A DNA stretch of 64,000 bases from Deltaproteobacteria bacterium (lineage in GTDB: Bacteria > Desulfobacterota > Binatia > UBA1149 > CAYXZP01), in contig JAYGCL010000079.1 in assembly GCA_046583365.1 (NCBI GenBank), forward strand, positions 17,508 through 81,507. The letters are read 5' to 3'. Position 1 is the stretch's first letter, and each line of letters begins with the position of its first letter. The translations under genes were made by a program, and so were the position numbers. A model generated the notes under the pieces. The model was not told where the DNA came from. It ran no database searches and saw only the letters and a list, made by a program, of their open reading frames with translations. This document shows positions 2,560 to 58,997 of this stretch, piece after piece.

Positions 2560-5085
<2,526 letters not shown>

Positions 5086-5255
5086 TTACCGGACCTTTTA
5101 TGTGGAGCCTGCAACAGCCCCCGGGGGAGCCATAAAGCTATCAAATTGGAACCTGTAAGTAAAGCAGCTAATGCCACTAAAACCCTTTAAATAAAAGGAT
5201 TTCTAGCACATCCGGGACATATTCCCGGCGACCCGAGGAAGCAGGTTCAGAGGCC

Positions 5256-6371
5256 CTATATGCGCATGGGCATGACGACGTAACGGTACCCTGGATCGTC
5301 CCCTCTGATCACCCCCGGACTCAGTTCGTCGCCGAGACCGATCTCAACCCTGGAACCTTCTGGAAGCACAGCTAAAACATCGAGGAAATAGCGGGCGTTG
5401 AACCCCACCTCTATCTCATCACCCTCATATTCCACCCCGACGTCTTCCCTGGCCTCTCCAACATCGGGGTTATTTGCGGAAATATTCATAGAACCAGCGT
5501 GCAGGGTAAGCCTTATGCCACGGGCTCTTTCACTGGATAAAATGGAAACACGGCGAATGGTCTGCAGCAATTCATCGCGCCCAACCCCCACAAGATTGGG
5601 GGTCTCTTTGGGCACTACCTGCCGATAGTCGGGAAAGGTTCCCTCAACCAGACGCATACTGAAAGTGCACGCAGACAATGAGAATGTGGCTTCGTTGCCG
5701 GCCACAGTGATGGTCACCTTCTCGGTTTCCTCGCCCAGCAGTTTGGCAACCTCAGAAAGACCCTTGCGCGGCATTATAATCCCCTCGGCCGGGGCCTCTC
5801 CCTTGATCTTTCTCTCCACTATAGCCAAGCGGTGCCCATCGGTGGCTACAGTTCTGAGGATGCCCTTCTTTTCACCACGTACCATATACACCCCGGCCAG
5901 GTTTGAGCGGGTGTCGTCTGAGGACACCGCAAATATTGTCTTACGTATGAGTTCGGCCAGGTCTCCAGGGTCAATTTCCATGGTACTGGTCTTCTCCCCG
6001 TTGTCTGGAGGTGTGGGCATCCCGGGGTGCTCGGCTGGATCCATACCGGTCAGCTTGAAGTTAGAACGACCATAGGAGACCTCGAGCCACTGGTTTTCCA
6101 TGGTCTGGATGGAAACCTCGTCACTGCCGGCTTCCCTTACGATCTCAAATAGCTTTCTGGAGGATACCGATGCGCGTCCTTCTTCCTGTACCTGGGCTTC
6201 ACACTTCTGTTTGAGCCCTATTTCCAGATCAGTGGCAATTATTTCCAGTTCTCCGTTACGGGCCTCCAACAGAAGGTTGGCAAGAACCGGCATCGAGTGG
6301 CGTTTGTCGACCACTCCCTGGGTGTGGGTGAGGATCTGGAGCAAGTTATCTTTATTGACTGTTATTTTCAT
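5256..6371 (-). CDS. dnaN: DNA polymerase III beta sliding clamp
   Basis: 371 aa, three-domain clamp. N-terminus MKITVNKDNLLQIL...PVLANLLLEA. Sits in the classical position between dnaA and gyrB. Confidence 0.93.
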   Translation of the reverse strand: MKITVNKDNLLQILTHTQGVVDKRHSMPVLANLLLEARNGELEIIATDLEIGLKQKCEAQVQEEGRASVSSRKLFEIVREAGSDEVSIQTMENQWLEVSYGRSNFKLTGMDPAEHPGMPTPPDNGEKTSTMEIDPGDLAELIRKTIFAVSSDDTRSNLAGVYMVRGEKKGILRTVATDGHRLAIVERKIKGEAPAEGIIMPRKGLSEVAKLLGEETEKVTITVAGNEATFSLSACTFSMRLVEGTFPDYRQVVPKETPNLVGVGRDELLQTIRRVSILSSERARGIRLTLHAGSMNISANNPDVGEAREDVGVEYEGDEIEVGFNARYFLDVLAVLPEGSRVEIGLGDELSPGVIRGDDPGYRYVVMPMRI

Positions 6372-6584
6372 GGGTACTTCCTATCAGTAATGTAATATCT
6401 TTCTGTTGTTTTTTTAAAGTGCACACATATGTGGATATCTATCCTAAGTTGCTGGAAAACTTATTTTTAATGCTTGTTTTGACCTGTGTGTTGGGTGTTT
6501 GCTGGCCTGCATATCTTTGTAGCAGGGCTCAGGCAAGGGTCGTTTTGTCCTCCTGACGGGGGTTTTGTGCAGGACTTATCCACA
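6372..6584. promoter_or_regulatory. Candidate oriC segment in the dnaA-dnaN intergenic region. A ~100-bp AT-rich stretch (~6380-6480, candidate DUE) is flanked by DnaA boxes TGTGGATAT (6430-6438, 8/9) and TTATCCACA (6576-6584, perfect, overlapping the dnaA stop).
   Basis: Seen directly: the stretch is about 30% GC in a roughly 66% GC window, and the boxes match the consensus TTATCCACA. Confidence 0.5.
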
Positions 6585-7967
6585 GCCCAGGGTTCGAGTG
6601 ACAGTTTCTAATACATTGCGGTAGTGGGGGTCTGCCCGCAGGCGTTTGTTGACGGCCTGGCAGGCGTGAACTACGGTGGAATGGTCGCGACCACCAAGAA
6701 AAGACCCAATGGCTGGGAATGAAGCCTCTGAGTGGTTACGCATGATGTACATGGCCAACTGCCTGGCCTCGGCTACCTTGCGGGTCCGACGGCGGGCCTG
6801 CAGTTCTCCGGGTTTAAGGCCGAAGTGCATGCTTACCCTGTTCTCGATTTCCTCCAGCGTGGGGGTTTCTGGACACTTCGCGCCCATGCTGTTGAGAAGT
6901 TCGGACGCCATGGATGTCGTTATTGCACACCGGTTTAAGGAGGCGAAGGCGCTTATGCGGGTCAGCGCACCTTCAAGGTCACGGATGTTTGAATCCACCC
7001 TGGAAGCTATCAATGTGGCGACGTCCATGGGCAGGTCGATACCCTCGTCACGGGCCCGGCGTTCGAGAATTGCCATGCGGGTTTCCACGTCCGGGTATTG
7101 GATATCAGCGACCAGACCCCACCCAAATCGGTTACACAGCCGTTCTTCCACTCCACGGATCTCGTTTGGGAACTTATCCGAGGTGAGAATGATCTGGCGG
7201 CCCCCCTGGTAGAGGCTGTTGAAGATATGAAAGAGTTCTTCCTGGGTCCTCTCCCTGCCGGCTATGAACTGTACGTCGTCGAGGATTAGCACGTCTATCC
7301 TGCGCATACGGTTCTTAAATTCCGGGGCCTTGTTGCGGGCCATGGCGTCGATCATCTGGTTGGTGAAAGTATCGGCGGTCAGAGAAAGCACACGGGTGGC
7401 CGGCGCGGCCTGTAAGATGGCATTGCCGATGGCATTGGCCAGGTGGGTTTTCCCTAGGCCGACGCCGCCAAAAAGGAAGAAAGGGTTGTAGAGGGTGCCC
7501 GGTTGTCCGGCCACAGCCATGGCTGCGGCTTTTGCAAACTGGTTACTCGCACCGACAACAAAGCTGTCAAAGTCGTAACGTTCGACCAGGCCGGAGTTCG
7601 AGAGTTGTCTACGGTGGGCCTCCTTTTGAGTCTTTAACAGATGGTCTGATTCATTGGGCTGGCCCTGTCCGTCCTGGTCTGAGAACAATTCTCCTTGCCG
7701 CGAGTGGTCCTGCCAGTTAAAGCGCAGGCGCGGTGTGTTGCCGGCCATGGCCCGCCAGGCGGCGACCAGGGTCTCGGTGTAGTGTTGTTCCACCCAGGAG
7801 GCGAACATGCGGTTCGGAACGCCGATCTCAAGCACCCCATCGCTGATGGAAAGGGGTTTCAGGGGTTTTACCCAGTTGTCGAAATCGCTGCTGCCAAGCT
7901 GCTGTCGAAGCGGCTCAACTGCCTGCTCCCACACCAGTTTCAGAGATTTTCCGGATCCTCTATCCAC
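6576..7967 (-). CDS. dnaA: Chromosomal replication initiator DnaA
   Basis: 463 aa. AAA+ Walker A GGVGLGKTHL, sensor motifs and a C-terminal HTH DNA-binding domain (AIGSFLGGRDHSTVVHACQ). Confidence 0.95.
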   Translation of the reverse strand: MDRGSGKSLKLVWEQAVEPLRQQLGSSDFDNWVKPLKPLSISDGVLEIGVPNRMFASWVEQHYTETLVAAWRAMAGNTPRLRFNWQDHSRQGELFSDQDGQGQPNESDHLLKTQKEAHRRQLSNSGLVERYDFDSFVVGASNQFAKAAAMAVAGQPGTLYNPFFLFGGVGLGKTHLANAIGNAILQAAPATRVLSLTADTFTNQMIDAMARNKAPEFKNRMRRIDVLILDDVQFIAGRERTQEELFHIFNSLYQGGRQIILTSDKFPNEIRGVEERLCNRFGWGLVADIQYPDVETRMAILERRARDEGIDLPMDVATLIASRVDSNIRDLEGALTRISAFASLNRCAITTSMASELLNSMGAKCPETPTLEEIENRVSMHFGLKPGELQARRRTRKVAEARQLAMYIMRNHSEASFPAIGSFLGGRDHSTVVHACQAVNKRLRADPHYRNVLETVTRTLGCG

Positions 7968-7994
7968 TTCCTGCCTGAGGGCTTAAGCACAGGG

Positions 7995-8014
7995 TTATCA
8001 ACAGTTGTGGATAA
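7995..8014. promoter_or_regulatory. Convergent pair of DnaA boxes upstream of dnaA: TTATCAACA (7995-8003, 8/9) and TGTGGATAA (8006-8014, perfect). Likely autoregulatory, or a second oriC half.
   Basis: Read directly in the sequence, 20-40 bp upstream of the dnaA start. Confidence 0.5.
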
Positions 8015-8192
8015 CCCGCCTGGTCCAGACCTGAGCCCTGGCCCACATGCTCCTGTGCCTCGTTCGGCGGAAATAGTGTGGGCGTGCGGACCTTGCAAGG
8101 AGCGGGGTGCGTAAGAGGGGATGCCGACGGTGGAGCAGAGGTTGCCACGGGCCTGCTACCTTGGTTTAGGTCGTTGGGCAAGGCTATTGGCG

Positions 8193-9473
8193 GTGGTGGA
8201 GACAAGGCAACAGGACAGGTCAGAGGCCCTTCACCGGGCCGCGCTCGCAGTGATACCCGGCGGCGTAAACTCGCCGGTCAGGTCATGGTCGGCAGTGGGG
8301 CTCAACCCCCGTTTTGTCGAGAGTGCACGGGGGACATCCATCCGGGATGCGGACGGCCATTCCTACACCGACTATGTAGCCTCGTTCGGCCCGCTTATCC
8401 TCGGCCACGCCGACCCCGTGGTGGTTGATGCCGTGGTGACTGCGGCCGCCAAGGGGACCAGTTACGGGGCCACCACGGCTGCTGAAGTCGAGTTGGCCGA
8501 GAGTCTGTGCCGGCGCTTTACCTCACTCGAGCGTATCCGCCTGGTCAATTCCGGAACCGAGGCAACCATGAGTGCCATACGGTTGGCCCGTGCCGCCACT
8601 GGCCGTGAGGGGATAGTAAAATTCGGCGGTTGTTACCACGGCCACGCCGATGGCCTTCTGGTGCGTGCCGGTTCGGGGGCCACTACCCTGGGGGTGCCCG
8701 ACAGTCCCGGCGTTCCCGCATCCTTTGCCGACCTGACCCGTGTGGCCAGATTTAACGACCTTGATTCCCTGGAGGCGGTTTGCGACAAGACCACCGCGGC
8801 AGTGATCGTTGAGCCGGTAGCCGGCAACATGGGAGTGGTGCCACCCCGGCCGGGTTTTCTTGAGGGCCTTTGCGAGATGGCCGCTGCAAGGGGTGCCCTG
8901 GTCATATTCGACGAGGTTATAAGCGGACTTCGACTGGGACCGGGAGGCTACCAGGGGCTTGCCGGTTTTACGCCCGACCTCACCTGTCTCGGCAAAATAA
9001 TCGGTGGGGGACTGCCGGTGGGCGCCTATGGCGGCCGCGCCGAGTTGATGGACATGCTGGCCCCGGTCGGCCCCGTCTACCAAGCCGGCACGCTCGCGGG
9101 CAACCCCCTGGCCGTGGCCGCCGGCTTGGCCACCCTCAGACGTCTGGACGAACTTGACCCCTACGACTGCCTCGAGGACCTGGGTGCTCGTCTCGAGGAC
9201 GGTATCCGCGCCGCGTTGGCCGACCGCGGCTGTGTGCAGAGGGTGGGCTCCATGCTCACCGTGTTTTTCGGACCCTCGCAGGTGACCAACTACGATGAGG
9301 CCACCACGGCCGACACCCAGCGCTTTGCGCGCTTCTTCCGTGCCGCCCTCGACCAGAGCCTGTGGATACCGCCCTCCCAGTTCGAGTCCTGGTTTGTGTC
9401 GGTGGTCCACAGCCAGGCCGACATCGATGCAACCGTGGAGGCGGTGGAAAGGGCCCTGCTGGCTTCGGACTAG
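8193..9473 (+). CDS. hemL: Glutamate-1-semialdehyde 2,1-aminomutase
   Basis: IPGGVNSPVRSW near the N-terminus and the PLP-lysine region DEVISGLRLGPGG...LTCLGKIIGGGLPVGAYGG. The track ORF starts at 8121, but alignment to HemL favours a GTG start at 8193 or 8196. Confidence 0.9.
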   Translation: MVETRQQDRSEALHRAALAVIPGGVNSPVRSWSAVGLNPRFVESARGTSIRDADGHSYTDYVASFGPLILGHADPVVVDAVVTAAAKGTSYGATTAAEVELAESLCRRFTSLERIRLVNSGTEATMSAIRLARAATGREGIVKFGGCYHGHADGLLVRAGSGATTLGVPDSPGVPASFADLTRVARFNDLDSLEAVCDKTTAAVIVEPVAGNMGVVPPRPGFLEGLCEMAAARGALVIFDEVISGLRLGPGGYQGLAGFTPDLTCLGKIIGGGLPVGAYGGRAELMDMLAPVGPVYQAGTLAGNPLAVAAGLATLRRLDELDPYDCLEDLGARLEDGIRAALADRGCVQRVGSMLTVFFGPSQVTNYDEATTADTQRFARFFRAALDQSLWIPPSQFESWFVSVVHSQADIDATVEAVERALLASD

Positions 9474-11269: not shown

Positions 11270-11845
11270 TTATCCGGACCGTGGGTTCCCGGCTGCAATG
11301 ATGAGGCTGCGCGTGCTCAGTGTCTCGACGGTCGCTACGGCCTGGCCGAGCCTTTCCATTCCCTGATTTTCTTCGCGGTCGACCACCGTCACAACCAGAC
11401 TCACCTTGGCGCCGGCCTTTTCCACTTCCTCAATGGCGGTGAGCGTGGAACCGCCACTGGTGACCACGTCTTCGACCAGGGCGATACGAAGCGCGGGGTC
11501 GAAACGCCCCTCTATGAGGCTTTCGGTGCCGTGGTCTTTTGCCTGCCTGCGAACGAAAAAGCCGTCCAGCGGATAGTTGCGGCCGGCTGCCTCCACCAGT
11601 GCCGCGGTGAGCAGGGGTACGGCACCCACCGCCATACCCCCCACCAGCTGGATGCCATGGTGGACGAGGCGGTCGCATATAAGGCTGCCCAGAAGGCGGG
11701 CGCCGGGGGCCGTCATGACCGTCTGTTTGACGTCCACGTAAAAGTCGCTGCTGCGACCCGAGGCCAGACGGAAAGTGCCGCGGCGCCAGGACAACTCGGC
11801 AAGCATGGTGGCAAGTTCCGGGCTGTTGGGTGGCGACGGATTCAT
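11270..11845 (-). CDS. pyrE: Orotate phosphoribosyltransferase
   Basis: FRLASGRSSDFYVD and the PRPP-binding motif VALVEDVVTSGGS. Confidence 0.88.
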   Translation of the reverse strand: MNPSPPNSPELATMLAELSWRRGTFRLASGRSSDFYVDVKQTVMTAPGARLLGSLICDRLVHHGIQLVGGMAVGAVPLLTAALVEAAGRNYPLDGFFVRRQAKDHGTESLIEGRFDPALRIALVEDVVTSGGSTLTAIEEVEKAGAKVSLVVTVVDREENQGMERLGQAVATVETLSTRSLIIAAGNPRSG

Positions 11846-11890
11846 GGGTGAGGTTTTATACGATTTGGCGGGCGCCGTTAAAGGGCCGTG

Positions 11891-12772
11891 TCAGGCCAGT
11901 TCCAGAAAAGCCTTGAGATGGCCCATGAACTCATCGAAGCCGTCGTGGTGGGCCCAGTGCCCGGCCCCGGCGATCTCGGCATAGGTATAGTCGCTGAAGT
12001 GGGTGGTGCGGCCATCTTTTGTCGGGTCGGAGGCCCACGACTTGGCGCCGCGTATGAGCAGGACGGGGCAGGTTATACGCGCCCACAGGCCTTCGACGGC
12101 GTCGCGGTCGTAGCGCTGGGGCGGGAAGGCACGCACGTAGTTGTCAAACTTCCACGTATACGAACCGTCTTCGGTACGCATGGTGCCGTGAATGGTCAGG
12201 TGGTGTGCCATCGCCGCAGACAGATGGGGGTTGGCCTCGCGCATGCGTGTTTCGGCCTCTTCGAGTGAGTCGTAGTGGCGGGGGCGGCGGCTGGCACAAG
12301 CCTGCATGGTCTCCACCCACTCGGCCATTCTTTGTTCCACCGGCCGGTCGACCTCCATGTCGGGGGGGGGGCCGAGTCCCTCGATGGCCGTCACCCTGGT
12401 GACCGAGTCGGGGAAGATGCCGGTGTAGTGCAAGGCGATGGCACCGCCCAGGGAATGACCCACCAGCGTTGCCTGGCTTTTGCCGACGTGGCGCAGCAAC
12501 TGGGTCAGGTCGAGCAGGTACTCGGCCATGGCGTACTGGGAGCCGATGGCCCAGGTCGAATCACCGTGGCCGCGCAGGTCGGGGGCTATGACGTGGTAAT
12601 GGTCGGCCAGACCGGCGGCGACGAAATCCCAACTGCGGGCATGGTCACGGCTGCCGTGGACCAACACCAGCAGCGGCTTGTCCGGACTGCCATAGTCCAC
12701 ATAGCTGAGCCGCAGACGCTGGGAGAAAAACGTATGAGAGGTTGGTCCCGGGCCGTTGGTGTTGGCTGCCAT
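11891..12772 (-). CDS. Alpha/beta hydrolase fold protein
   Basis: LVLVHGSRDHARSWDFV...APDLRGHGDS and the nucleophile elbow GHSLGG. Confidence 0.75.
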   Translation of the reverse strand: MAANTNGPGPTSHTFFSQRLRLSYVDYGSPDKPLLVLVHGSRDHARSWDFVAAGLADHYHVIAPDLRGHGDSTWAIGSQYAMAEYLLDLTQLLRHVGKSQATLVGHSLGGAIALHYTGIFPDSVTRVTAIEGLGPPPDMEVDRPVEQRMAEWVETMQACASRRPRHYDSLEEAETRMREANPHLSAAMAHHLTIHGTMRTEDGSYTWKFDNYVRAFPPQRYDRDAVEGLWARITCPVLLIRGAKSWASDPTKDGRTTHFSDYTYAEIAGAGHWAHHDGFDEFMGHLKAFLELA

Positions 12773-12773
12773 G

Positions 12774-13916
12774 CTAGTGTTTCAGGATGTTGCGGGCGAT
12801 TATCACGCGTTGGATTTGTGAGGTTCCTTCGTAGATCTGGACGAGTTTGATATCGCGCATGAGCTTCTCCACGGGGTACTCTTTCATGTAGCCGTAGCCC
12901 CCGAATATCTGTACGGCGTTGGTGGCTATCTGCATGGCACGGTCGGCCGAGAAAGCCTTGGCATAACTGGAAACTATGGTGGAACGTTCGCCCTGGTCTA
13001 TGAGCCAGCCGGCCTTGTAGGTCAGCAGCTGCATTGCCTCCAACTCGATGGCCATGTCTGCAAGCATGAACTGTATGGCCTGGAAGTTGGCAATGGGCTG
13101 GCCGAACTGTTTACGTTCCAGTGCGTAAGCCTTTGACTCATCGAGTGCCCGCCGTGAAATCCCGCATCCGATGGCCCCGATCTGGGGACGTGAACGGTCG
13201 AAGGTCTCCATGGCGATTTTGAAGCCCTGGCCTTCTTCTCCGACCAGGGCTGTCCTGGGTACGCGAACCTCCTCCAGCACGATCTCACCCGTATCCGAGG
13301 CTCGCTGCCCCATCTTCCCTTTCATCTTGGTGGTTGTGATTCCGTCGCTGCCGGCGTCAACGATAAAACAGGATATGCCCTTGTGGCCGAGGGACTTGTC
13401 GTGGGTGGCAAATACCACAAACCAGTCGGCAACCGTTGCGTTGGTGATGAAGTGTTTGGTTCCGGAAATCACAAAGTCCTCGCCCTCGCTGCGGTAGCTT
13501 GTCGATATGCTGGCCGCGTCCGAGCCCGAACCGGGTTCGGTAAGGGCGTAGGCGGCAAAGCGACAGTCGGAAGTCAGGCGGACGAGATAGTTGAGTTTTT
13601 GTTCCGGGCTACCGGCAATGAGCAGCGGGGTGGCGGCAAGGCCGTTGGCCGCCACCGTGGTAGCCATACCGGCGCACCCATAGTTGAGTTCTTCGAGTAC
13701 CAGGATGGAGTCGAGAATGTTGAGTCCGAGGCCACCGTATTCTTCGGGTATTTCAAAATTGATCAAGCCTACTTCCCAGGCTTTGCGCATGATCTGGGCG
13801 GGAAACTCTTCGGCTTCGTCGTAGTGGGAGGCAAGCGGGATAATTTCCTTGCGTGTAAAGTCGCGGGCTGTTTTCCTGAGCTGTTCCTGCTCCGGGCTTA
13901 GTGTGAATCCGAACAT
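12774..13916 (-). CDS. Acyl-CoA dehydrogenase
   Basis: Four-helix C-terminal ACAD domain (QIFGGYGYMKEYPVEKLMRDIKLVQIYEGTSQIQR). The likely start is the internal Met MFGFTLSPEQEQL rather than 13976. Confidence 0.85.
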   Translation of the reverse strand: MFGFTLSPEQEQLRKTARDFTRKEIIPLASHYDEAEEFPAQIMRKAWEVGLINFEIPEEYGGLGLNILDSILVLEELNYGCAGMATTVAANGLAATPLLIAGSPEQKLNYLVRLTSDCRFAAYALTEPGSGSDAASISTSYRSEGEDFVISGTKHFITNATVADWFVVFATHDKSLGHKGISCFIVDAGSDGITTTKMKGKMGQRASDTGEIVLEEVRVPRTALVGEEGQGFKIAMETFDRSRPQIGAIGCGISRRALDESKAYALERKQFGQPIANFQAIQFMLADMAIELEAMQLLTYKAGWLIDQGERSTIVSSYAKAFSADRAMQIATNAVQIFGGYGYMKEYPVEKLMRDIKLVQIYEGTSQIQRVIIARNILKH

Positions 13917-28335: not shown

Positions 28336-29334
28336 TCAGCCGGCCGCCGGGGCCAGCTGGTTGAGACGGTCGATGAGGGTGCGAAGGCGGCCGTAGCTTT
28401 CCATGTCGAAGTGCGTCGTCAGGCGGGTGAGTCCGTCGAGGGCCGGCTCGTCGAACTCTTCCTTGAAAACCCCTCGCTGTCGTATCGGTTGTCCGCCGAG
28501 GATGTCCGAGAACTCTTCGGACAGGCTCGCCAACGCGGTCTCCCCCAACTTTTGCGTGGTACGCAGGACCAGGCGGCGGCGGATCACGCGGGAAGAGTGG
28601 TAGCAGCGGTAGAAGTCGGTGATGTGTTGCACGGCTGTGTCGACGTTGTCGGTAATGGAGTAAAGGTTGAGGTCGGTGGGACTGATAAGGCCCCGGCCGA
28701 GGAGGTGGCGACGCACGTAGTCGTCCCAGCCCTGCCAGTAGTCTCCGCCGGGGATGTCGAGAAGGATTATGGGCATCAGTTGGGCCTTGCCGGTTTGCAC
28801 CAGGGTCAGCGTTTCAAAGCCTTCATCGTGGGTGCCGAAACCGCCGGGCAGAAGTACCACGGCCGAGGACTCTTTTAAGAAGAACAGTTTGCGGGTGAAG
28901 AAGTATTTAAAGTCCACCAGCTTGCGGTCTCCGCGGATCACCGGGTTGGCCACGTTCTCAAAGGGCAGTTTTATATTGACCCCGAAGCTGCGCTTGCGCC
29001 CGGCTCCCTGTTGGCAGGCCTCCATGATGCCGGGCCCGGCTCCGGTGATAACCATGAAGCCGGCATCGGCGATGCGCCGGGAAAAGTCGCGGGCCAGGTC
29101 ATAGATCGGCGTGTCGGGGCGAGTACGGGCCGAACCGAAGGTCGTTACCTTGCGCACCGAGGCGTAGGGACGAAAGCAGGCCAGGCCCCGGCGGATCTCG
29201 TCCATGGCCGACTCGATGAGTTTGAGGTCGGCCACCGCGATGCCGTCGTCGGCTAGGTTGAGGCAGGTCTGTATGAGCTTGGCCAGTAAGGGGCCGGTTC
29301 TGGGGTCGTCGATTTTGTCGGAAGGCTTGCCCAT
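28336..29334 (-). CDS. LOG-family protein, long form (TIGR00730 Rossmann fold with N-terminal extension)
   Basis: VTTFGSARTRPDTPIYDLARDFSRRIADAGFMVITGAGPGIMEA...LLPGGFGTHDEGFETLTLVQTGK. Confidence 0.7.
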   Translation of the reverse strand: MGKPSDKIDDPRTGPLLAKLIQTCLNLADDGIAVADLKLIESAMDEIRRGLACFRPYASVRKVTTFGSARTRPDTPIYDLARDFSRRIADAGFMVITGAGPGIMEACQQGAGRKRSFGVNIKLPFENVANPVIRGDRKLVDFKYFFTRKLFFLKESSAVVLLPGGFGTHDEGFETLTLVQTGKAQLMPIILLDIPGGDYWQGWDDYVRRHLLGRGLISPTDLNLYSITDNVDTAVQHITDFYRCYHSSRVIRRRLVLRTTQKLGETALASLSEEFSDILGGQPIRQRGVFKEEFDEPALDGLTRLTTHFDMESYGRLRTLIDRLNQLAPAAG

Positions 29335-29387
29335 AGGCTTCTGTCTTGCGTCGGCCGCCGGTCAGTGCAAGCCGCCGACCGCCGCTC

Positions 29388-30392
29388 TCAGTGGCCGTCG
29401 CGGTGTTGATTGATTTCGAGCAGTCGAAATTTCGCGCTGGGGGCGATGCCGTCACGGTCGTAGACTATCGCCTCAACGCCTGCCGCCTGGGCCACGGCCA
29501 GCCCCTTGCGGCCCGTGATCACCAGGGCCGTGGACCAGGCCTCGGCCACCGCGGCCCGTGGGGCCATTGCGGTGGCAAGGCGGGGGGGAAGAACCGGGCT
29601 TAAATTGAAAGGGTCAATGATGGGCCCAACCTCGGCTGCCGGTCCCAAGGCCTTTGAGGTTGAAAGGGCCGCGTCGTGCAGTTCGACTGCACCCAGGAGT
29701 TGCCCCGGTTGGATGCCGCCGAGGGCCACCCGCCAGGCTTTGTCCCCTCTGGTCCGCCCGAGGGCCATGTGGCTGGAACCGCCGAAGTCGGCAAAGGCCC
29801 CGCGTGCGCCTTTGGATTTTAAAAAATCCACGATCTTGTCCAGGGCCAGGCCTTTGCCTATGCCACCGGCGTCCAGACGGACCCCGGGCAGGAGGGAGGC
29901 TGTGGGACGGGCTCCCTTTGCGCCTTCGAGGGTAAGGGCGGTTTGCAGACTCAAGGCTCCGCGCAAGGCCGCGCGTTCGAGCGTGTGCAGGTCGGCGGCG
30001 GTTGGAGTTTTGTGTTGCCGCCATAAATCCACGGCTGGCCCCAGGGCCGGGTCAAAGGTGGCCTTGGTGGCTTGGGCCAGGTCTTTCATTGTCGCCAGGG
30101 CCCAGGCCAGGTCCGGGCTTATGGCTACGGCTCCACTGCCGGCCTTGAGGTTGAGCCGTTCCAGCTCCCCTTCGGGCCGCCAGGTGGTAAGCACGTCGTC
30201 CCAGTGCCGGGCGATTGCAATACAAGCCTGGGCCAGACGGTCGGCTTCCTCGCCGGTGGCGGCCACCACTTCGACTTGCAAGACGGTGCCCATGACGGCC
30301 GCCGCCGCCTTTGCCGAGGCAGCGCCGGCGGCTGTGGCCGGGGCCGCCAGGACAAACAGAAGAAATACCAGCGCCGGCAGCGCTCGCGTCAA
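29388..30392 (-). CDS. apbE: FAD:protein FMN transferase
   Basis: Signal peptide, and an ApbE fold with LDAGGIGKGLALDK and a C-terminal Mg/FAD-binding region. Confidence 0.8.
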   Translation of the reverse strand: MTRALPALVFLLFVLAAPATAAGAASAKAAAAVMGTVLQVEVVAATGEEADRLAQACIAIARHWDDVLTTWRPEGELERLNLKAGSGAVAISPDLAWALATMKDLAQATKATFDPALGPAVDLWRQHKTPTAADLHTLERAALRGALSLQTALTLEGAKGARPTASLLPGVRLDAGGIGKGLALDKIVDFLKSKGARGAFADFGGSSHMALGRTRGDKAWRVALGGIQPGQLLGAVELHDAALSTSKALGPAAEVGPIIDPFNLSPVLPPRLATAMAPRAAVAEAWSTALVITGRKGLAVAQAAGVEAIVYDRDGIAPSAKFRLLEINQHRDGH

Positions 30393-30395
30393 CTC

Positions 30396-30917
30396 TCAGT
30401 CCCCGTTCTCGCCGTTACTGTTGGACGGGCCGTAAGCGCTTGGCAGTTCGAAGAGCAGGGCCCGGGCCACCAGTATTACCAGGATGGCAATCACGCCCTG
30501 CAGGAGCAGGAACATGGAGATTTTCATCCAGGCAAACCCCGGATGCACAAAGCGTACGCCCCAGCCGGCCAACTCGCCGCCCATGCCGGCGCCGAAGGCA
30601 AGGGCGATACCCCAGGCCTTGATACGCATGGAAATCGGTACAAACAGGGTCAGGTGGGTGAGCGTAAGCAGCAGGATGCCCATGGCAAAACTGTGGAAGT
30701 GGAGCATTTCCAGCAGCCCGACAAAGCTGCGGGGCTGCAGGTAGAGTTCTTCGTTGCCGAGGTAATAGTCGATTACCGAAGCCGGGTTGAGGCTCATCTT
30801 TGAAAAGTAAAGACCGATGTTGGTCAGCCACAACACCACCGTGTAGGCCAGGAAACACCACACGATCATTTTGAGTAGACGGTTTTTGGTCCACTCTCCG
30901 GTTACTACGAAACGCAT
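30396..30917 (-). CDS. 4-TM integral membrane protein with conserved His in TM helices, possibly DUF4405/cytochrome-b-like
   Basis: Four predicted TM helices. Histidines sit inside hydrophobic segments (EMLHFHSFAMG, LTLTHLTLF). Lies between the FMN-binding gene and apbE. Confidence 0.5.
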   Translation of the reverse strand: MRFVVTGEWTKNRLLKMIVWCFLAYTVVLWLTNIGLYFSKMSLNPASVIDYYLGNEELYLQPRSFVGLLEMLHFHSFAMGILLLTLTHLTLFVPISMRIKAWGIALAFGAGMGGELAGWGVRFVHPGFAWMKISMFLLLQGVIAILVILVARALLFELPSAYGPSNSNGENGD

Positions 30918-30929
30918 GACTATAACGGC

Positions 30930-45501: not shown

Positions 45502-46101
45502 GTGTTCAGCGGAATCATCGAAGACCTGGGCTCGGTGGCCGCGGTGGAGCCCTTGCAGTCTGGTTCGCGGCTTACCATAAAGACGGCGCTTGAAGTCGGC
45601 GAGATCGGCTTGGGCGACAGCATTGCCGTAAACGGGGCCTGCATGACGGCGGTGGCCGTTGCAAGTAAGAGCGGCACTTTCGACGTCGACGTGTCGGCCG
45701 AATCTCTGAGGTGTACCACCCTGGGTCTTCTCAAGGCCGGCAGCCGGGTAAATCTCGAACGTTCCATACGCATGAGCGACCGTCTGGACGGCCACCTGGT
45801 CTCCGGACACGTGGACGGTACGGGTAGTCTGAGGGCAATAAAGTCCGAAGGGGAATCGTCGGTCTACTCGTTCGAAGTAGCGGCTGACCTTATGCGCTTG
45901 ATGGTGGAAAAGGGCTCGGTGGCCGTCGATGGAATAAGCCTTACCTGTTTTAACTGTAGCCGCAGCGGTTTTGATGTGGCCGTCATAGCGCATACCGCCT
46001 CCGTGACTACCCTTGGGCTGCTCACCGACGGAAACCCCGTGAACATTGAAAACGATTTGTTCGGCAAGTATGTGGCCAAGCTGGCCGGCCCGGCCGTCTA
46101 G
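45502..46101 (+). CDS. ribE: Riboflavin synthase
   Basis: MFSGIIEDLG...AVNGACMT and the duplicated lumazine-binding repeat. Confidence 0.85.
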   Translation: MFSGIIEDLGSVAAVEPLQSGSRLTIKTALEVGEIGLGDSIAVNGACMTAVAVASKSGTFDVDVSAESLRCTTLGLLKAGSRVNLERSIRMSDRLDGHLVSGHVDGTGSLRAIKSEGESSVYSFEVAADLMRLMVEKGSVAVDGISLTCFNCSRSGFDVAVIAHTASVTTLGLLTDGNPVNIENDLFGKYVAKLAGPAV

Positions 46102-47456
46102 CCGGTGGCACCACCGATGAGGTAGGGCAGCAACACGGCCATGGGGTCGACGTCGGAGTCCAGCTGTTTGCCGATTCCACTCAGCAGACCCATGACCCGC
46201 AGCACCAACAACAGGTCGGCGGAAGCCTCAACCAGCGGGTCCTTGCGCAGGGCGGTAAAGACTTCGTCGCCGATGCGCTCGACCATGGCCAGGTTGGCGT
46301 AGGCACGGCCGGTGGTGAATGCCTGGCCCAGGAAAACGTCGCCGATGAGGACCAGGGTTTCGTCTTTGCCGCTGCGGGTACGAAAGCCCAGGGCGCGAAA
46401 AGCCGAGGCCACCGCGGCGTTGTCACCCCTGGCTATGGCCGCGGCCAGAGTTATGACGGCGTTCCTGAGTTGGGCCGAGAATTCCTTGGCCAGGCCCAGG
46501 TCGACAATGGCCAGTACGGGTCCGGGCAGAACCAGGAGGTTGCCGGGGTGGGGGTCGCCGTGGAAGAAGCCATGTTCGAGAATCTGTCGGACATAGGCGC
46601 GAGTCAGCAGCGAGGCTATCTCGCGTTTGTCGATGCCTGCGTCTTCTAAAGCCTTTACATCGGTTATCTTGATGCCGTCCAGATAGGTCATGGTGAGAAC
46701 CGTGCGGCAGCTCAGCTCTTCAAACGGGGTGGGGAAGACCACGCTCGGGTCGTCGGCAAAATTGGCGATGAAGCGTCTGGCGTTGGCCGCCTCGTTGGTA
46801 AAATCCAATTCGAGAGGGATGAGTTCGACTATCTCCTTGAGAAAAAGCCTCAGGTCGAATCTTTTTTCGAGCTTGGCCAACAGGTTGATGAAGAAAGAAA
46901 AATTGGCCAGGTCGGTGGCGATGATCTTTTCGATGTTGGGGTACTGGACCTTTACGGCCACTTCGCGGCCATCGTCGAGGCGGGCCCGGTGTACCTGGGC
47001 CAGGGAAGCGGCCGCGATAGGGTGGGGGTCGATGTAGGCAAAGCAGCTGTCGAGACTACGGCCGAGTTGGTCTTCGATCCACGGTCCAATGGTTGAAAAG
47101 GGGCGTGGCGGGACACGGTCGTGGAGTTCGGAGAGAATCTCTACGTAGTCGGCCGGGAGTATGTCGGCACGGCTGCCGGCAAATTGGCAGGCTTTTATGA
47201 GCAGACCCTCCAGCCTTACGGCCGTATTTCTTATCAGCCGGGCGCTACGGTGGTGCTGGCGGTCCCAGTAGTCTTTGCGCGAGCTTGCACCCAGCAGCGC
47301 TCCCCAGGCCTGCAGTCCCTTGTACCCGACATATATGGCGACGACCATGTACGCCACCGAGGCGAAGCGGCCGATACGTACGGGCAAAGGTAGTGGGGTA
47401 GGACTTTCAGTCGTGGCCGGCGGCGTCACGTTCGAGTTGCTCGATGCGGTGCTCAA
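46098..47456 (-). CDS. ubiB: ABC1/UbiB-family atypical kinase
   Basis: AAASLAQVHRARLDDGREVAVKVQYP and the HGDPHPGNLLV motif. Confidence 0.8.
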   Translation of the reverse strand: MSTASSNSNVTPPATTESPTPLPLPVRIGRFASVAYMVVAIYVGYKGLQAWGALLGASSRKDYWDRQHHRSARLIRNTAVRLEGLLIKACQFAGSRADILPADYVEILSELHDRVPPRPFSTIGPWIEDQLGRSLDSCFAYIDPHPIAAASLAQVHRARLDDGREVAVKVQYPNIEKIIATDLANFSFFINLLAKLEKRFDLRLFLKEIVELIPLELDFTNEAANARRFIANFADDPSVVFPTPFEELSCRTVLTMTYLDGIKITDVKALEDAGIDKREIASLLTRAYVRQILEHGFFHGDPHPGNLLVLPGPVLAIVDLGLAKEFSAQLRNAVITLAAAIARGDNAAVASAFRALGFRTRSGKDETLVLIGDVFLGQAFTTGRAYANLAMVERIGDEVFTALRKDPLVEASADLLLVLRVMGLLSGIGKQLDSDVDPMAVLLPYLIGGATG

Positions 47457-47550
47457 GTTTTGCCGACGACGAGGTCAGACGCCAGGCGTAAAAAAAGATA
47501 AGCGTCCACACCACCGCATAAGCGGCACCCACATAAGCCAGGGGACTCAC
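47407..47550 (-). CDS. ccmD: Heme exporter protein D (not in ORF track)
   Basis: 47-aa ORF VSPLAYVGAAYAVVWTLIFFYAWRL...EHRIEQLERD with a single TM helix. Its GTG start overlaps the ccmC stop (GTGA). Confidence 0.45.
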   Translation of the reverse strand: MSPLAYVGAAYAVVWTLIFFYAWRLTSSSAKLEHRIEQLERDAAGHD

Positions 47551-57164: not shown

Positions 57165-57167
57165 GCT

Positions 57168-58997
57168 ATGTGCGGTATCGTTGGTTACGTGGGCCATCGT
57201 CATGCCGCCGGTGTCCTGCTGTCGGGACTGAGAAAACTTGAGTACCGTGGCTACGATTCGGCCGGCGTGGCCACGGTGTGCGATGACGACATCGACGTGC
57301 GTCGTGCCGTCGGCAAACTCGACAACCTCCAGGCGGTGCTTGCCGAGAACCCGATCGGCGGAACCATCGGTATAGGCCATACCCGTTGGGCAACCCACGG
57401 CCGCCCATCCGAACAGAACGCCCACCCCCACCGTTCCGGCGATGTGGTGATTATCCACAATGGCATCATAGAAAATTACGTTGCCCTGCGTGAGCAGTTG
57501 GTCGCCGAGGGCAGAGAGATAGCCTCGGAGACCGATACCGAGGTGATTTCCCACTTGATTGACCGTGAGATGACCAACGGCCGCGATATTTTTGAGGCTA
57601 CCACGGCCGCTATCGTATATCTGGAGGGTTCTTTTGCACTGGTCTCCATGTCGAGCCGTGAGCCCGGACGCCTGGTGGCGGCCAAGAATGCGACACCGGT
57701 AGTCATAGGGGTGGGCGATGGAGAAAATTTTGTCGCTTCCGACATCCCGGCGGTTCTGGAATACACCCGCGACGTACTCTTTCTCGAAGACGGGGAAATA
57801 GCCGACATCGACCGGAGTGGGATAAGGATTTCAACGTTCGCAGGCCAGCAGGTTTCAAGGAAACCCAAACGCATCACATGGGACCCTATCACCGCTCAAA
57901 AGGGCGGCTACAAACACTTCCTCATAAAGGAAATCCACGAACAACCGCAGGCCGTTATCGATACTATGCGGGGCCGGATTGCACAGGACACGGGTGATGT
58001 GCTGCTCCCCGAACTGGAGGCTCTGGGCGACAGGCTCGACCGCATCAAGAGGGCCACGATTGTCGCCTGTGGAACTGCCTGGCACGCCGCTCTGGTCGGC
58101 AAGTTCATACTAGAACGTTTCGCCCGCATACCCACAGAGGTCGACTACGGCAGCGAGTTCCGCTACCGCGACCCGCTGGTAGACGATGAGACCCTTATCA
58201 TCGCGGTTTCTCAGTCGGGGGAAACGGCCGATACTCTGGCTCCCCTGCAGCAGGCCCAGGACAAGGGCGCCCTGGTGGTTTCGATCTGTAACGTTGTCGA
58301 CTCTTCTATCGCCCGTAAGTCGGATGCGGTTATCTATACTCATGCCGGTCCGGAAATCAGCGTGGCCAGCACCAAGGCTTTCACCACTCAACTGACCGCT
58401 CTTTACCTTGTCGGCTTGTTTCTCGGCCGCCGCTTCGGAGGCATCAACGAAAGGCTGGAATCCGAGTGCATACAGGCGCTGGTGGAGATGCCCAGCTTGA
58501 TGCAGCAAACCCTGTCTTGTGAGAGCCATGTAGCCAGGGCCGCACGGCGTTACGCGTCCTCGTCTGACGTTCTCTATATTGGCCGCGGCATCAACTACCC
58601 GATTGCCCTGGAGGGAGCGCTCAAACTCAAGGAGGTCTCCTATATACACGCCGAAGGTTATCCGGCCGGCGAAATGAAGCACGGACCCATAGCACTTATA
58701 GACGACAAGATGCCGGTGGTGGTCTTAATCCCCCGTGACGAGGTTTACAGCAAAACACTGAGCAACCTGCGCGAGGTGGAGTCCAGGGGAGGACGCATCA
58801 TAGCCTTGACCGACAAGGCCGATGACGAACTCACCAGCATAGCCGAGACCATCATCGAGGTGCCGACGACCAGTACCAGCCTCATGCCGGTGTTACTCGC
58901 TCTTCCCCTGCAACTGTTGGCCTACCACATCGCCGTAGAGCGCGGCACCGATATCGACCAACCCCGCAACCTGGCCAAGAGCGTAACCGTCGAGTAG
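57168..58997 (+). CDS. glmS: Glutamine-fructose-6-phosphate aminotransferase
   Basis: MCGIVGYVG Ntn-glutaminase start, two SIS domains, and the C-terminal ...KSVTVE. Confidence 0.92.
   Translation: MCGIVGYVGHRHAAGVLLSGLRKLEYRGYDSAGVATVCDDDIDVRRAVGKLDNLQAVLAENPIGGTIGIGHTRWATHGRPSEQNAHPHRSGDVVIIHNGIIENYVALREQLVAEGREIASETDTEVISHLIDREMTNGRDIFEATTAAIVYLEGSFALVSMSSREPGRLVAAKNATPVVIGVGDGENFVASDIPAVLEYTRDVLFLEDGEIADIDRSGIRISTFAGQQVSRKPKRITWDPITAQKGGYKHFLIKEIHEQPQAVIDTMRGRIAQDTGDVLLPELEALGDRLDRIKRATIVACGTAWHAALVGKFILERFARIPTEVDYGSEFRYRDPLVDDETLIIAVSQSGETADTLAPLQQAQDKGALVVSICNVVDSSIARKSDAVIYTHAGPEISVASTKAFTTQLTALYLVGLFLGRRFGGINERLESECIQALVEMPSLMQQTLSCESHVARAARRYASSSDVLYIGRGINYPIALEGALKLKEVSYIHAEGYPAGEMKHGPIALIDDKMPVVVLIPRDEVYSKTLSNLREVESRGGRIIALTDKADDELTSIAETIIEVPTTSTSLMPVLLALPLQLLAYHIAVERGTDIDQPRNLAKSVTVE

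Follow-up and report, generated by a model that had tools for sequence, protein, structure and literature searches.

The 64,000-nucleotide stretch analysed here (the window, part of the 100.9-kb contig JAYGCL010000079.1 of a Deltaproteobacteria bacterium placed in Binatia) carries dnaA on its minus strand, with dnaN, gyrB and gyrA following on in the same orientation, with the divergent hemL and atp genes on the other side (Table 1). DnaA boxes lie at both ends of the dnaA reading frame and in the dnaA-dnaN spacer, next to the least stable DNA of the window. The strongest support for reading this region as a replication origin is that the positions and orientations of the boxes, together with the adjoining AT-rich tract, recur in 13 other Candidatus Binatia loci. 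As judged from sequence, the region is probably (at a probability of roughly 0.75) the Candidatus Binatia oriC, built in two parts around dnaA like those of Bacillus, Clostridioides and Helicobacter and with unwinding in the dnaA-dnaN spacer. It is an ordinary type of origin next to dnaA, and its unusual point is a conserved three-base repeat that lies on the strand opposite to that of the textbook model.

The comparison set consists of the window and 13 distinct Candidatus Binatia loci (L001-L003 and L162-L171; 14 loci in all, ten with flanks of up to ±10 kb), and the DnaA of the window is 57-66% identical to those of the related Candidatus Binatia/Binatota loci, which come from metagenome-assembled genomes (MAGs); a protein identical to the window DnaA is on record from a 100,887-bp MAG contig. 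Alignment of the 14 dnaA-dnaN spacers (alignment A1) gives a mean column identity of 54%, with few invariant columns that are grouped in discrete elements: starting from dnaA, these are box 1, the inverted box 2, a GC cluster, four adenines spaced at three-base intervals and an AT-rich tract that leads to dnaN, whose ATG (6369-6371) forms the edge of the spacer. Box 1 overlaps the dnaA stop in 10 of the 14 loci; in the window its sense strand, TGTGGATAA, contributes TGT GGA TAA (Cys-Gly-stop) to the gene, the TAA being the reverse complement of 6576-6578. In the other four loci the box lies 20-75 nucleotides (nt) into a correspondingly longer spacer, and its retention as a separate element where the DnaA C terminus differs argues for selection on DNA rather than on protein. 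Box 2, which in the alignment reads TTATCCAC(A/G) on the sense strand and is inverted with respect to box 1, has a core, T.TCC, that is invariant in all 14 loci, with the A and one further C conserved at 90% or more. The start-to-start distance between the two boxes, corresponding to about 14 helical turns, is exactly 146 bp in nine loci and 145-148 bp in three more, and it stays at 145-158 bp in the loci where box 1 lies beyond the stop. Two additional motifs are conserved between them: a GCACA block, of which C103 and A104 are invariant in A1 and C105 and A106 are kept at 90% or more, is possibly a half-site or a weak DnaA site, and a box-like element at A1 columns 85-93, which has two to three mismatches to TTWTNCACA, may be a low-affinity site.

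On the far side of box 2, a gap of 9-16 nt in the relatives, with the consensus ..TTGCGC.., leads to the period-3 array. The central adenines of the latter (6413, 6410, 6407 and 6404; A1 columns 189, 193, 196 and 199) are invariant in all 14 loci; the base that follows each of them is a purine in 55 of 56 alignment cells, and the base that precedes it varies. In-frame NAN runs of 4-8 units are found on the sense strand of 13 of the 14 loci, with NTN runs of at most two units. A small open reading frame (ORF) was considered as the cause of the 3-nt periodicity and rejected, the aligned sequences having no conserved start and the NAR frame being interrupted by TAA stops in most loci. Beyond the array, the 13 loci with identified boxes have a homologous AT-rich tract of 25-40 nt, which continues into the ribosome-binding site of dnaN; its counterpart in the window is likely to be the core of the unwound region.

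Nearest-neighbour calculations single out the same spacer. The segment 6343-6442, which abuts box 2 and so places an AT-rich element beside a DnaA box, is the weakest 100-bp duplex of the 64 kb (ΔG −114.5 kcal/mol, the mean being −152.6 ± 7.3 and the next-best value −126.0), about 5 standard deviations off the mean. Over 150 bp, the candidate DNA unwinding element (DUE) with its flanks has a ΔG of −177.3, against a mean of −229.7 ± 9.6 and a next-best value of −201.0, and 50-bp windows starting at 6350-6450 contain 64-72% A+T. The second-weakest 100-bp duplex, 5126-5225 (61% A+T), belongs to the dnaN-gyrB intergenic region (5065-5255), which has no DnaA box with two or fewer mismatches and presumably serves as leader or promoter of gyrB.

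Over the window as a whole, boxes with no more than one mismatch are not enriched (9 found, 6.5 expected in 64 kb). Four of the nine fall within 1.6 kb, an arrangement seen in 2 of 300 Markov-simulated windows (P about 0.007), and the probability of at least four boxes is about 2e-4 when the composition of the region itself is used. The original prediction, made from the letters alone, had named a perfect box over the dnaA stop, a box matching 8 of 9 positions between dnaA and dnaN, a box pair upstream of dnaA and an AT-rich stretch of about 100 bp between dnaA and dnaN; all of these were recovered, the upstream pair being inverted, and the relaxed-match search that had been suggested alongside them added two 7/9 boxes (B3 and B4). 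The four upstream boxes lie inside 55 bp (7960-8014), a grouping of at least three boxes averaging less than 100 bp apart. A third perfect TTATCCACA occurs at 57451-57459, isolated within a plus-strand ORF (57165-58997); it may mean nothing, because chance alone would give about 0.5 perfect boxes in 64 kb.

Table 1. Features of the dnaA region, in window coordinates. Sense denotes the dnaA-sense (minus) strand.
Feature	Position	Strand	Sequence or remark
gyrA	95-2557	minus	NCBIfam
gyrB	2560-5064	minus	NCBIfam
dnaN, DNA polymerase III beta clamp	5256-6371	minus	NCBIfam TIGR00663, E 7.9e-87
Candidate DUE with flanks	6343-6492		lowest-stability segment of the whole window (nearest-neighbour ΔG)
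AT-rich tract with dnaN ribosome-binding site	6372-6396	minus	sense ATTACATTACTGATAGGAAGTACCC
Period-3 array	6397-6414	minus	sense AAA AAA CAA CAG AAA GAT
Box 2-to-array spacer with GC cluster	6415-6429	minus	sense TATGTGTGCACTTTA
DnaA box 2	6430-6438	minus	ATATCCACA, 8/9; oriented on the sense strand as 5'-TTATCCACA-3'
Conserved GCACA block	6483-6490	minus	sense CACACAGG
Weak box-like motif	6506-6514	minus	sense ATATGCAGG; clade consensus TTATGCAC
DnaA box 1	6576-6584	plus	TTATCCACA, perfect; over the dnaA stop
dnaA, 463 aa	6576-7967	minus	NCBIfam TIGR00362, E 8.7e-148; GTG start 7965-7967
DnaA box B4	7960-7968	plus	CTATCCACT, 7/9; sense aGTGGATAg, includes the dnaA GTG start
DnaA box B3	7983-7991	plus	TTAAGCACA, 7/9; same orientation as B2, 3 bp away
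DnaA box B2	7995-8003	plus	TTATCAACA, 8/9; inverted relative to B1, gap 2 bp
DnaA box B1	8006-8014	minus	perfect; TGTGGATAA on the plus strand, TTATCCACA on the sense strand
Promoter-like motif for dnaA	8070-8098	minus	-35 TTGCAA (8093-8098), 17-nt spacer, -10-like TATTTC (8070-8075)
hemL, divergent from dnaA	8121-9473 (ORF)	plus	NCBIfam
atpB, atpE	right of hemL	plus	NCBIfam

Upstream of dnaA, a second alignment (A2) reveals the sense-strand pattern TTATCCACA-NN-TGTGGA(T/C)AA-NNN-TGTGnn(T/C)AA in 14 of 14 loci, the TGT...AA of B3 being invariant. The closer relatives have a fourth box, (G/T)GTGGA(T/A)A, located some 13 nt further on and spanning the GTG or TTG start; it is weak or absent in L002, L166, L167 and L169, and its conservation could in part reflect coding constraint. 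Further upstream, TTG.A is invariant in the 14 loci and is followed 17-18 nt downstream by a conserved T-A, at a distance from the boxes that ranges from about 80 nt in the window to about 190 nt. A strict sigma-70 scan of 5900-8600 returned no hits, so that the TTGCAA-17-TA motif is best called promoter-like; it would nevertheless serve as the dnaA promoter, in which case B1-B4 fall within the transcribed dnaA leader and their simplest role would be that of an autorepression operator. By analogy with two-part origins, they may possibly also form the distal half of the origin. The motif GTTATCTCGCG(A/G)(C/T)GTT is found upstream of the promoter-like element in L166, L167, L169 and L001 and is absent from the window.

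Four boxes within 55 bp make this the densest cluster of the region, and it lies upstream of dnaA, which could suggest that unwinding takes place here, in the hemL-dnaA spacer, with the dnaA-dnaN boxes as auxiliaries. Such an arrangement is very improbable: the spacer has an A+T content of 32-48% in 50-bp windows and is not listed among the least stable segments, so that the lack of an AT-rich tract argues against an unwinding site; the sole matches to the published rule for unwinding modules (see below) are the neighbouring boxes themselves; and the skew minimum is on the other side of dnaA.

That minimum of the cumulative G-C curve falls at 6270, some 100 bp away from the dnaA-dnaN spacer. 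The curve falls over the 6.3 kb of the leftward part of the window and then rises, almost monotonically, through the 57.7 kb of the rightward part; because the rise persists across minus-strand genes, for example at 28336-30929 and 46098-47474, the skew is not solely a coding-strand effect, and the excess of G over C on the would-be leading strand on each side has the polarity of an origin rather than of a terminus. Within ±10 kb, the minimum lies less than or about 800 bp from the dnaA stop in 10 of the 14 loci (window included), with negative skew upstream and positive skew downstream. The claim of the original prediction that replication starts here is thus supported by the skew polarity at 6270, by the lowest duplex stability, by the clustered boxes and by conservation in the clade. 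The accompanying claim of a strand switch at about 8 kb stands in part: the genes to the left (gyrA, gyrB, dnaN and dnaA) are on the minus strand, and plus-strand genes run from hemL to atpE (about 8.1-11.2 kb), but the right side is not uniformly plus: a minus-strand block lies at 11270-12781, and the plus strand holds about 63% of the coding bases, a share that derives from a rough gene call based on G+C content at third codon positions.

Several observations weigh against an origin at this position. In L163, L166, L167 and L169 the ±10-kb skew minimum lies elsewhere, and in the window it is weakly anchored, since the left arm measures only 6.3 kb and comprises four co-oriented genes. Across the clade, GC skew at third codon positions fails to set dnaA apart from the genes next to it; it is negative in all genes, reflecting codon bias, and that of dnaA is clearly more negative in the window only. 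The candidate DUE coincides with the dnaN leader and ribosome-binding site, so that its conservation could serve gene expression. As for the period-3 array, runs of this kind are by themselves not unusual inside the window (29 NAR runs of at least four units, against 12.5 expected), so that its weight comes from its conservation, and its adenines are on the strand opposite to that of the canonical unwinding module, which is accordingly absent in its published form.

Some of these points would also fit boxes that are mere transcriptional operators, involved in dnaA-dnaN autoregulation, the origin being at another chromosomal site, as in E. coli, in which dnaA and oriC are separated. The upstream cluster is found downstream of a conserved promoter-like motif, in the dnaA leader, with one box over the start codon; box 2 and the AT-rich tract are within the dnaN leader; no minus-strand terminator was found after dnaA, so that the dnaA-dnaN spacer is probably transcribed; and the skew evidence applies to the window rather than to the whole replicon. 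That the boxes are operators and nothing more is nonetheless unlikely, given the local skew switch of origin polarity at 6270 and its recurrence in 10 of the 14 loci, the placement of the lowest-stability DNA of 64 kb in the spacer, and the fixed 146-bp phasing of inverted strong boxes combined with a GC cluster and a period-3 array, a layout of the origin type and not of the operator type.

The genes around the origin candidate are arranged in the same way in its relatives. Where the flanks extend to yidC, in eight loci, the order is atpE-atpB-...-hemL in one direction and dnaA-dnaN-gyrB-gyrA-gpsA-(rpmH/rnpA/yidD)-yidC in the other; the other loci keep the core hemL/dnaA-dnaN(-gyrB) order as far as their sequence extends, the exception being L163, which is without hemL-atp and gyrB. 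The rpmH, rnpA, yidD and yidC genes classically sit directly upstream of dnaA. In L162, L164-L169 and L171 they are instead located 3' of gyrA-gpsA (at about 18-21 kb in locus coordinates, a position that the window stops short of), and the divergent upstream neighbour of dnaA is hemL-atpI-atpB-atpE. The HemL profile match begins at residue 31 of an ORF that opens with the ATG at 8121, and the HemL proteins of the relatives are 423-443 aa long; the real start is therefore probably downstream, at about 8142-8195, which would extend the hemL-dnaA spacer past the end at 8120 given in the original prediction. The G+C content is 53-57% over the first 8 kb of the window (gyrA to dnaA) and about 58-67% across the remainder.

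Taken as an origin, the locus suggests the following course of events. ATP-DnaA would bind the two strong, inverted spacer boxes, box 1 and box 2, and probably also the weaker sites between them; beside box 2, the resulting oligomer would extend over the short GC cluster onto the period-3 element and open the adjoining AT-rich tract (about 6372-6414), directly upstream of dnaN, where the replicative helicase would be loaded before the forks depart both ways. Boxes B1-B4, in the transcribed leader of dnaA, would act as an autoregulatory operator and may aid the origin by DNA looping, in which case the two clusters would cooperate.

For the uncultured phylum Binatota, the literature searched yielded no described origin of replication. 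The locus and its 13 relatives offer an oriC model for the clade that is both precise and testable, and that can help to orient MAG assemblies, to estimate growth rates from read depth and to compare origin architectures. Three of its features go beyond what would be expected of an origin next to dnaA: the strand-inverted period-3 element, the fixed 146-bp spacing and the presence of both ends of the dnaA ORF within DnaA boxes.

Among known systems, the closest in overall plan are the bipartite origins of B. subtilis (incAB/incC), C. difficile (oriC1/oriC2) and H. pylori (oriC1/oriC2), which likewise have box clusters on both sides of dnaA. At the level of sequence, the resemblance extends to an AT-rich candidate for unwinding downstream of dnaA, beside a box and a GC cluster, and to a period-3 element between the box and the AT-rich tract. 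The Binatia locus differs from these origins in its upstream neighbour, which is the divergent hemL rather than rpmH, in its far smaller number of boxes (two strong ones downstream and four upstream) and in the location of the central adenines of the period-3 element on the opposite strand.

A second resemblance is to E. coli oriC, in which the DUE 13-mers are followed by the boxes R1 to R4. Read along the plus strand, the window presents a T-rich tract, the GC cluster, TGTGGATAT (R1-like), about 137 bp with weak sites and finally TTATCCACA (R4-like), so that the order of the elements and the orientations of the end boxes are identical. Unlike its E. coli counterpart, the Binatia candidate adjoins dnaA and is more compact, with 146 bp between the end boxes; it has no GATC-rich 13-mers, and no IHF site was identified in it. 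The TT[A/G]T motif of the single-stranded DUE is present on the T-rich strand in every one of the 14 loci (27 times, against 7 on the opposite strand), a count that is expected from the A/T skew and does not discriminate, since the T-richness of the tract predicts the motif by chance alone. The upstream triple B1/B2/B3, for its part, resembles the core of the E. coli DnaA-reactivating sequences DARS1 and DARS2, which consists of three adjacent boxes with I opposite to II and with II and III alike, and does so in 14 of 14 loci. Membership of this family was rejected, as the first two boxes are 2 bp apart in all 14 loci, against 5 bp in DARS; the position of the cluster within the dnaA leader points to an operator instead.

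A further comparison is with the basal unwinding system (BUS), which consists of one or more DnaA boxes, a GC-rich gap and a series of DnaA-trios, 3'-AATAGGTGT-gap-(GAT)n-5' (Richardson 2016, 2019; Pelliciari 2021, 2023), exemplified in the supplementary tables of Pelliciari by AATAGGTGT TTAGGTGT CCGG GATGATAATGAAGATGAT in B. subtilis and AATAGGTGT CCCGTCACGC TAGGATTAT in E. coli. Written in this form, the trio strand carries the box as 5'-TGTGGATAA-3' and the trios as its 5' tail. The system has been proposed to be ancestral and orientation-dependent, box orientation being essential in B. subtilis, where reversal of boxes 6/7 inactivates the origin. The corresponding search rule asks for a DnaA box with two or fewer mismatches, a gap of no more than 16 bp and at least three trinucleotides with a central adenine (Pelliciari 2021).

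Much of this design is found in the Binatia spacers. Box 2, with 0-2 mismatches in 12 of the 14 loci, is followed by a 9-16-nt gap with a GC cluster, by at least four trinucleotides in which the central A is invariant and has a purine next to it (3'-RAN-5'), and lastly by AT-rich DNA. What differs is the strand: the Binatia adenines are 3' of the box, on the strand where box 2 reads 5'-TTATCCACA-3', whereas on the canonical 5'-tail strand there are 5'-YTN-3' repeats, for instance CTG CTG CTG TTA, without adenines at those positions and with NAN runs of no more than two units. A canonical module was accordingly rejected for both spacers of the 14 loci, in which the published rule retrieves as three-unit runs only the neighbouring boxes themselves or sporadic, non-homologous runs. 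Moreover, no conserved alternative anchor box 3' of the array was found between the array and position +120 of dnaN. The same search does find canonical 5'-box-CCC-(CTA/ATA/GTA)n arrays in other phyla, as in a Saccharibacteria locus with 5'-CTATCCACA CAATTCACA CCC CTA ATA GTA GTA GTA-3'; these served as a positive control only, because a comparison of inverted and canonical run lengths in other phyla is confounded by the fact that (TAN)n has both A- and T-centred frames. The dnaA-dnaN spacer of the more distant, Binatia-related Bacterium HR30 (L006; DnaA 51% identical) contains two forward boxes, TTTTCCACA and CTTTCCACA, followed by GTA CTA and an A-rich tract; its GTA CTA resembles a short trio pair on the canonical strand, and the strand arrangement may thus differ within the wider phylum.

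The protein side of the system is conserved. Alignment to the cryo-EM structure of B. subtilis DnaA (8btg) matches N187/I190/N196/R202/E228, the residues that capture the G and the A of each trio, with N203/I206/N212/K218/E244 of the window DnaA (Lys in place of Arg at K218), and further pairs I193 with M209, K222 with R238 and E223 with E239; the window DnaA thus retains the residues for trio binding and capture. Tentatively, and at appreciably less than even odds, the Binatia origins may represent a variant DnaA unwinding module whose single-strand element is inverted relative to its anchoring box, in a setting where dnaA has both its start and its stop codon inside a DnaA box and the 146-bp spacing is maintained. 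DnaA could then engage the 3'-RAN-5' trios of the 3'-tail strand, which would call for swivelling between domains III and IV of the kind that lets T. maritima DnaA form head-to-tail oligomers whatever the direction of the box; alternatively, it could bind the thymine-centred 5'-YTN-3' repeat of the canonical strand, Pelliciari et al. having anticipated deviant trios of the thymine-centred kind without documenting any.

A rather unlikely, though by no means far-fetched, alternative keeps the origin at this site and moves the period-3 element to the RNA level: unwinding would depend on the boxes and on AT-richness only, and the repeat, 5'-NAR-3' or equivalently A-R-N, would act in the dnaN mRNA leader, where it might serve as an (ARN)n site for the distal face of Hfq or enhance translation as an A-rich element. 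On the sense strand the repeat precedes the dnaN start by 25-40 nt, in a spacer without a terminator; its series of invariant A, purine and any base is formally identical to the ARN motif, and its strand is the wrong one for canonical DnaA-trios. On the other hand, its distance of 9-16 nt from box 2, with the GC cluster in between, is within the range defined for BUS, the base-capture residues of DnaA are conserved, and an Rfam search of 5000-9000 matched no RNA family at E ≤ 1; the sequence pattern by itself fits the RNA and the DnaA readings alike.

In summary, despite the inverted strand of its repeat, the Binatia clade keeps the box, the gap, the periodicity and the capture residues of the basal unwinding system, and its probable origin would either extend the BUS model or show that repeats of this kind near dnaN can have a different role, at the RNA level.

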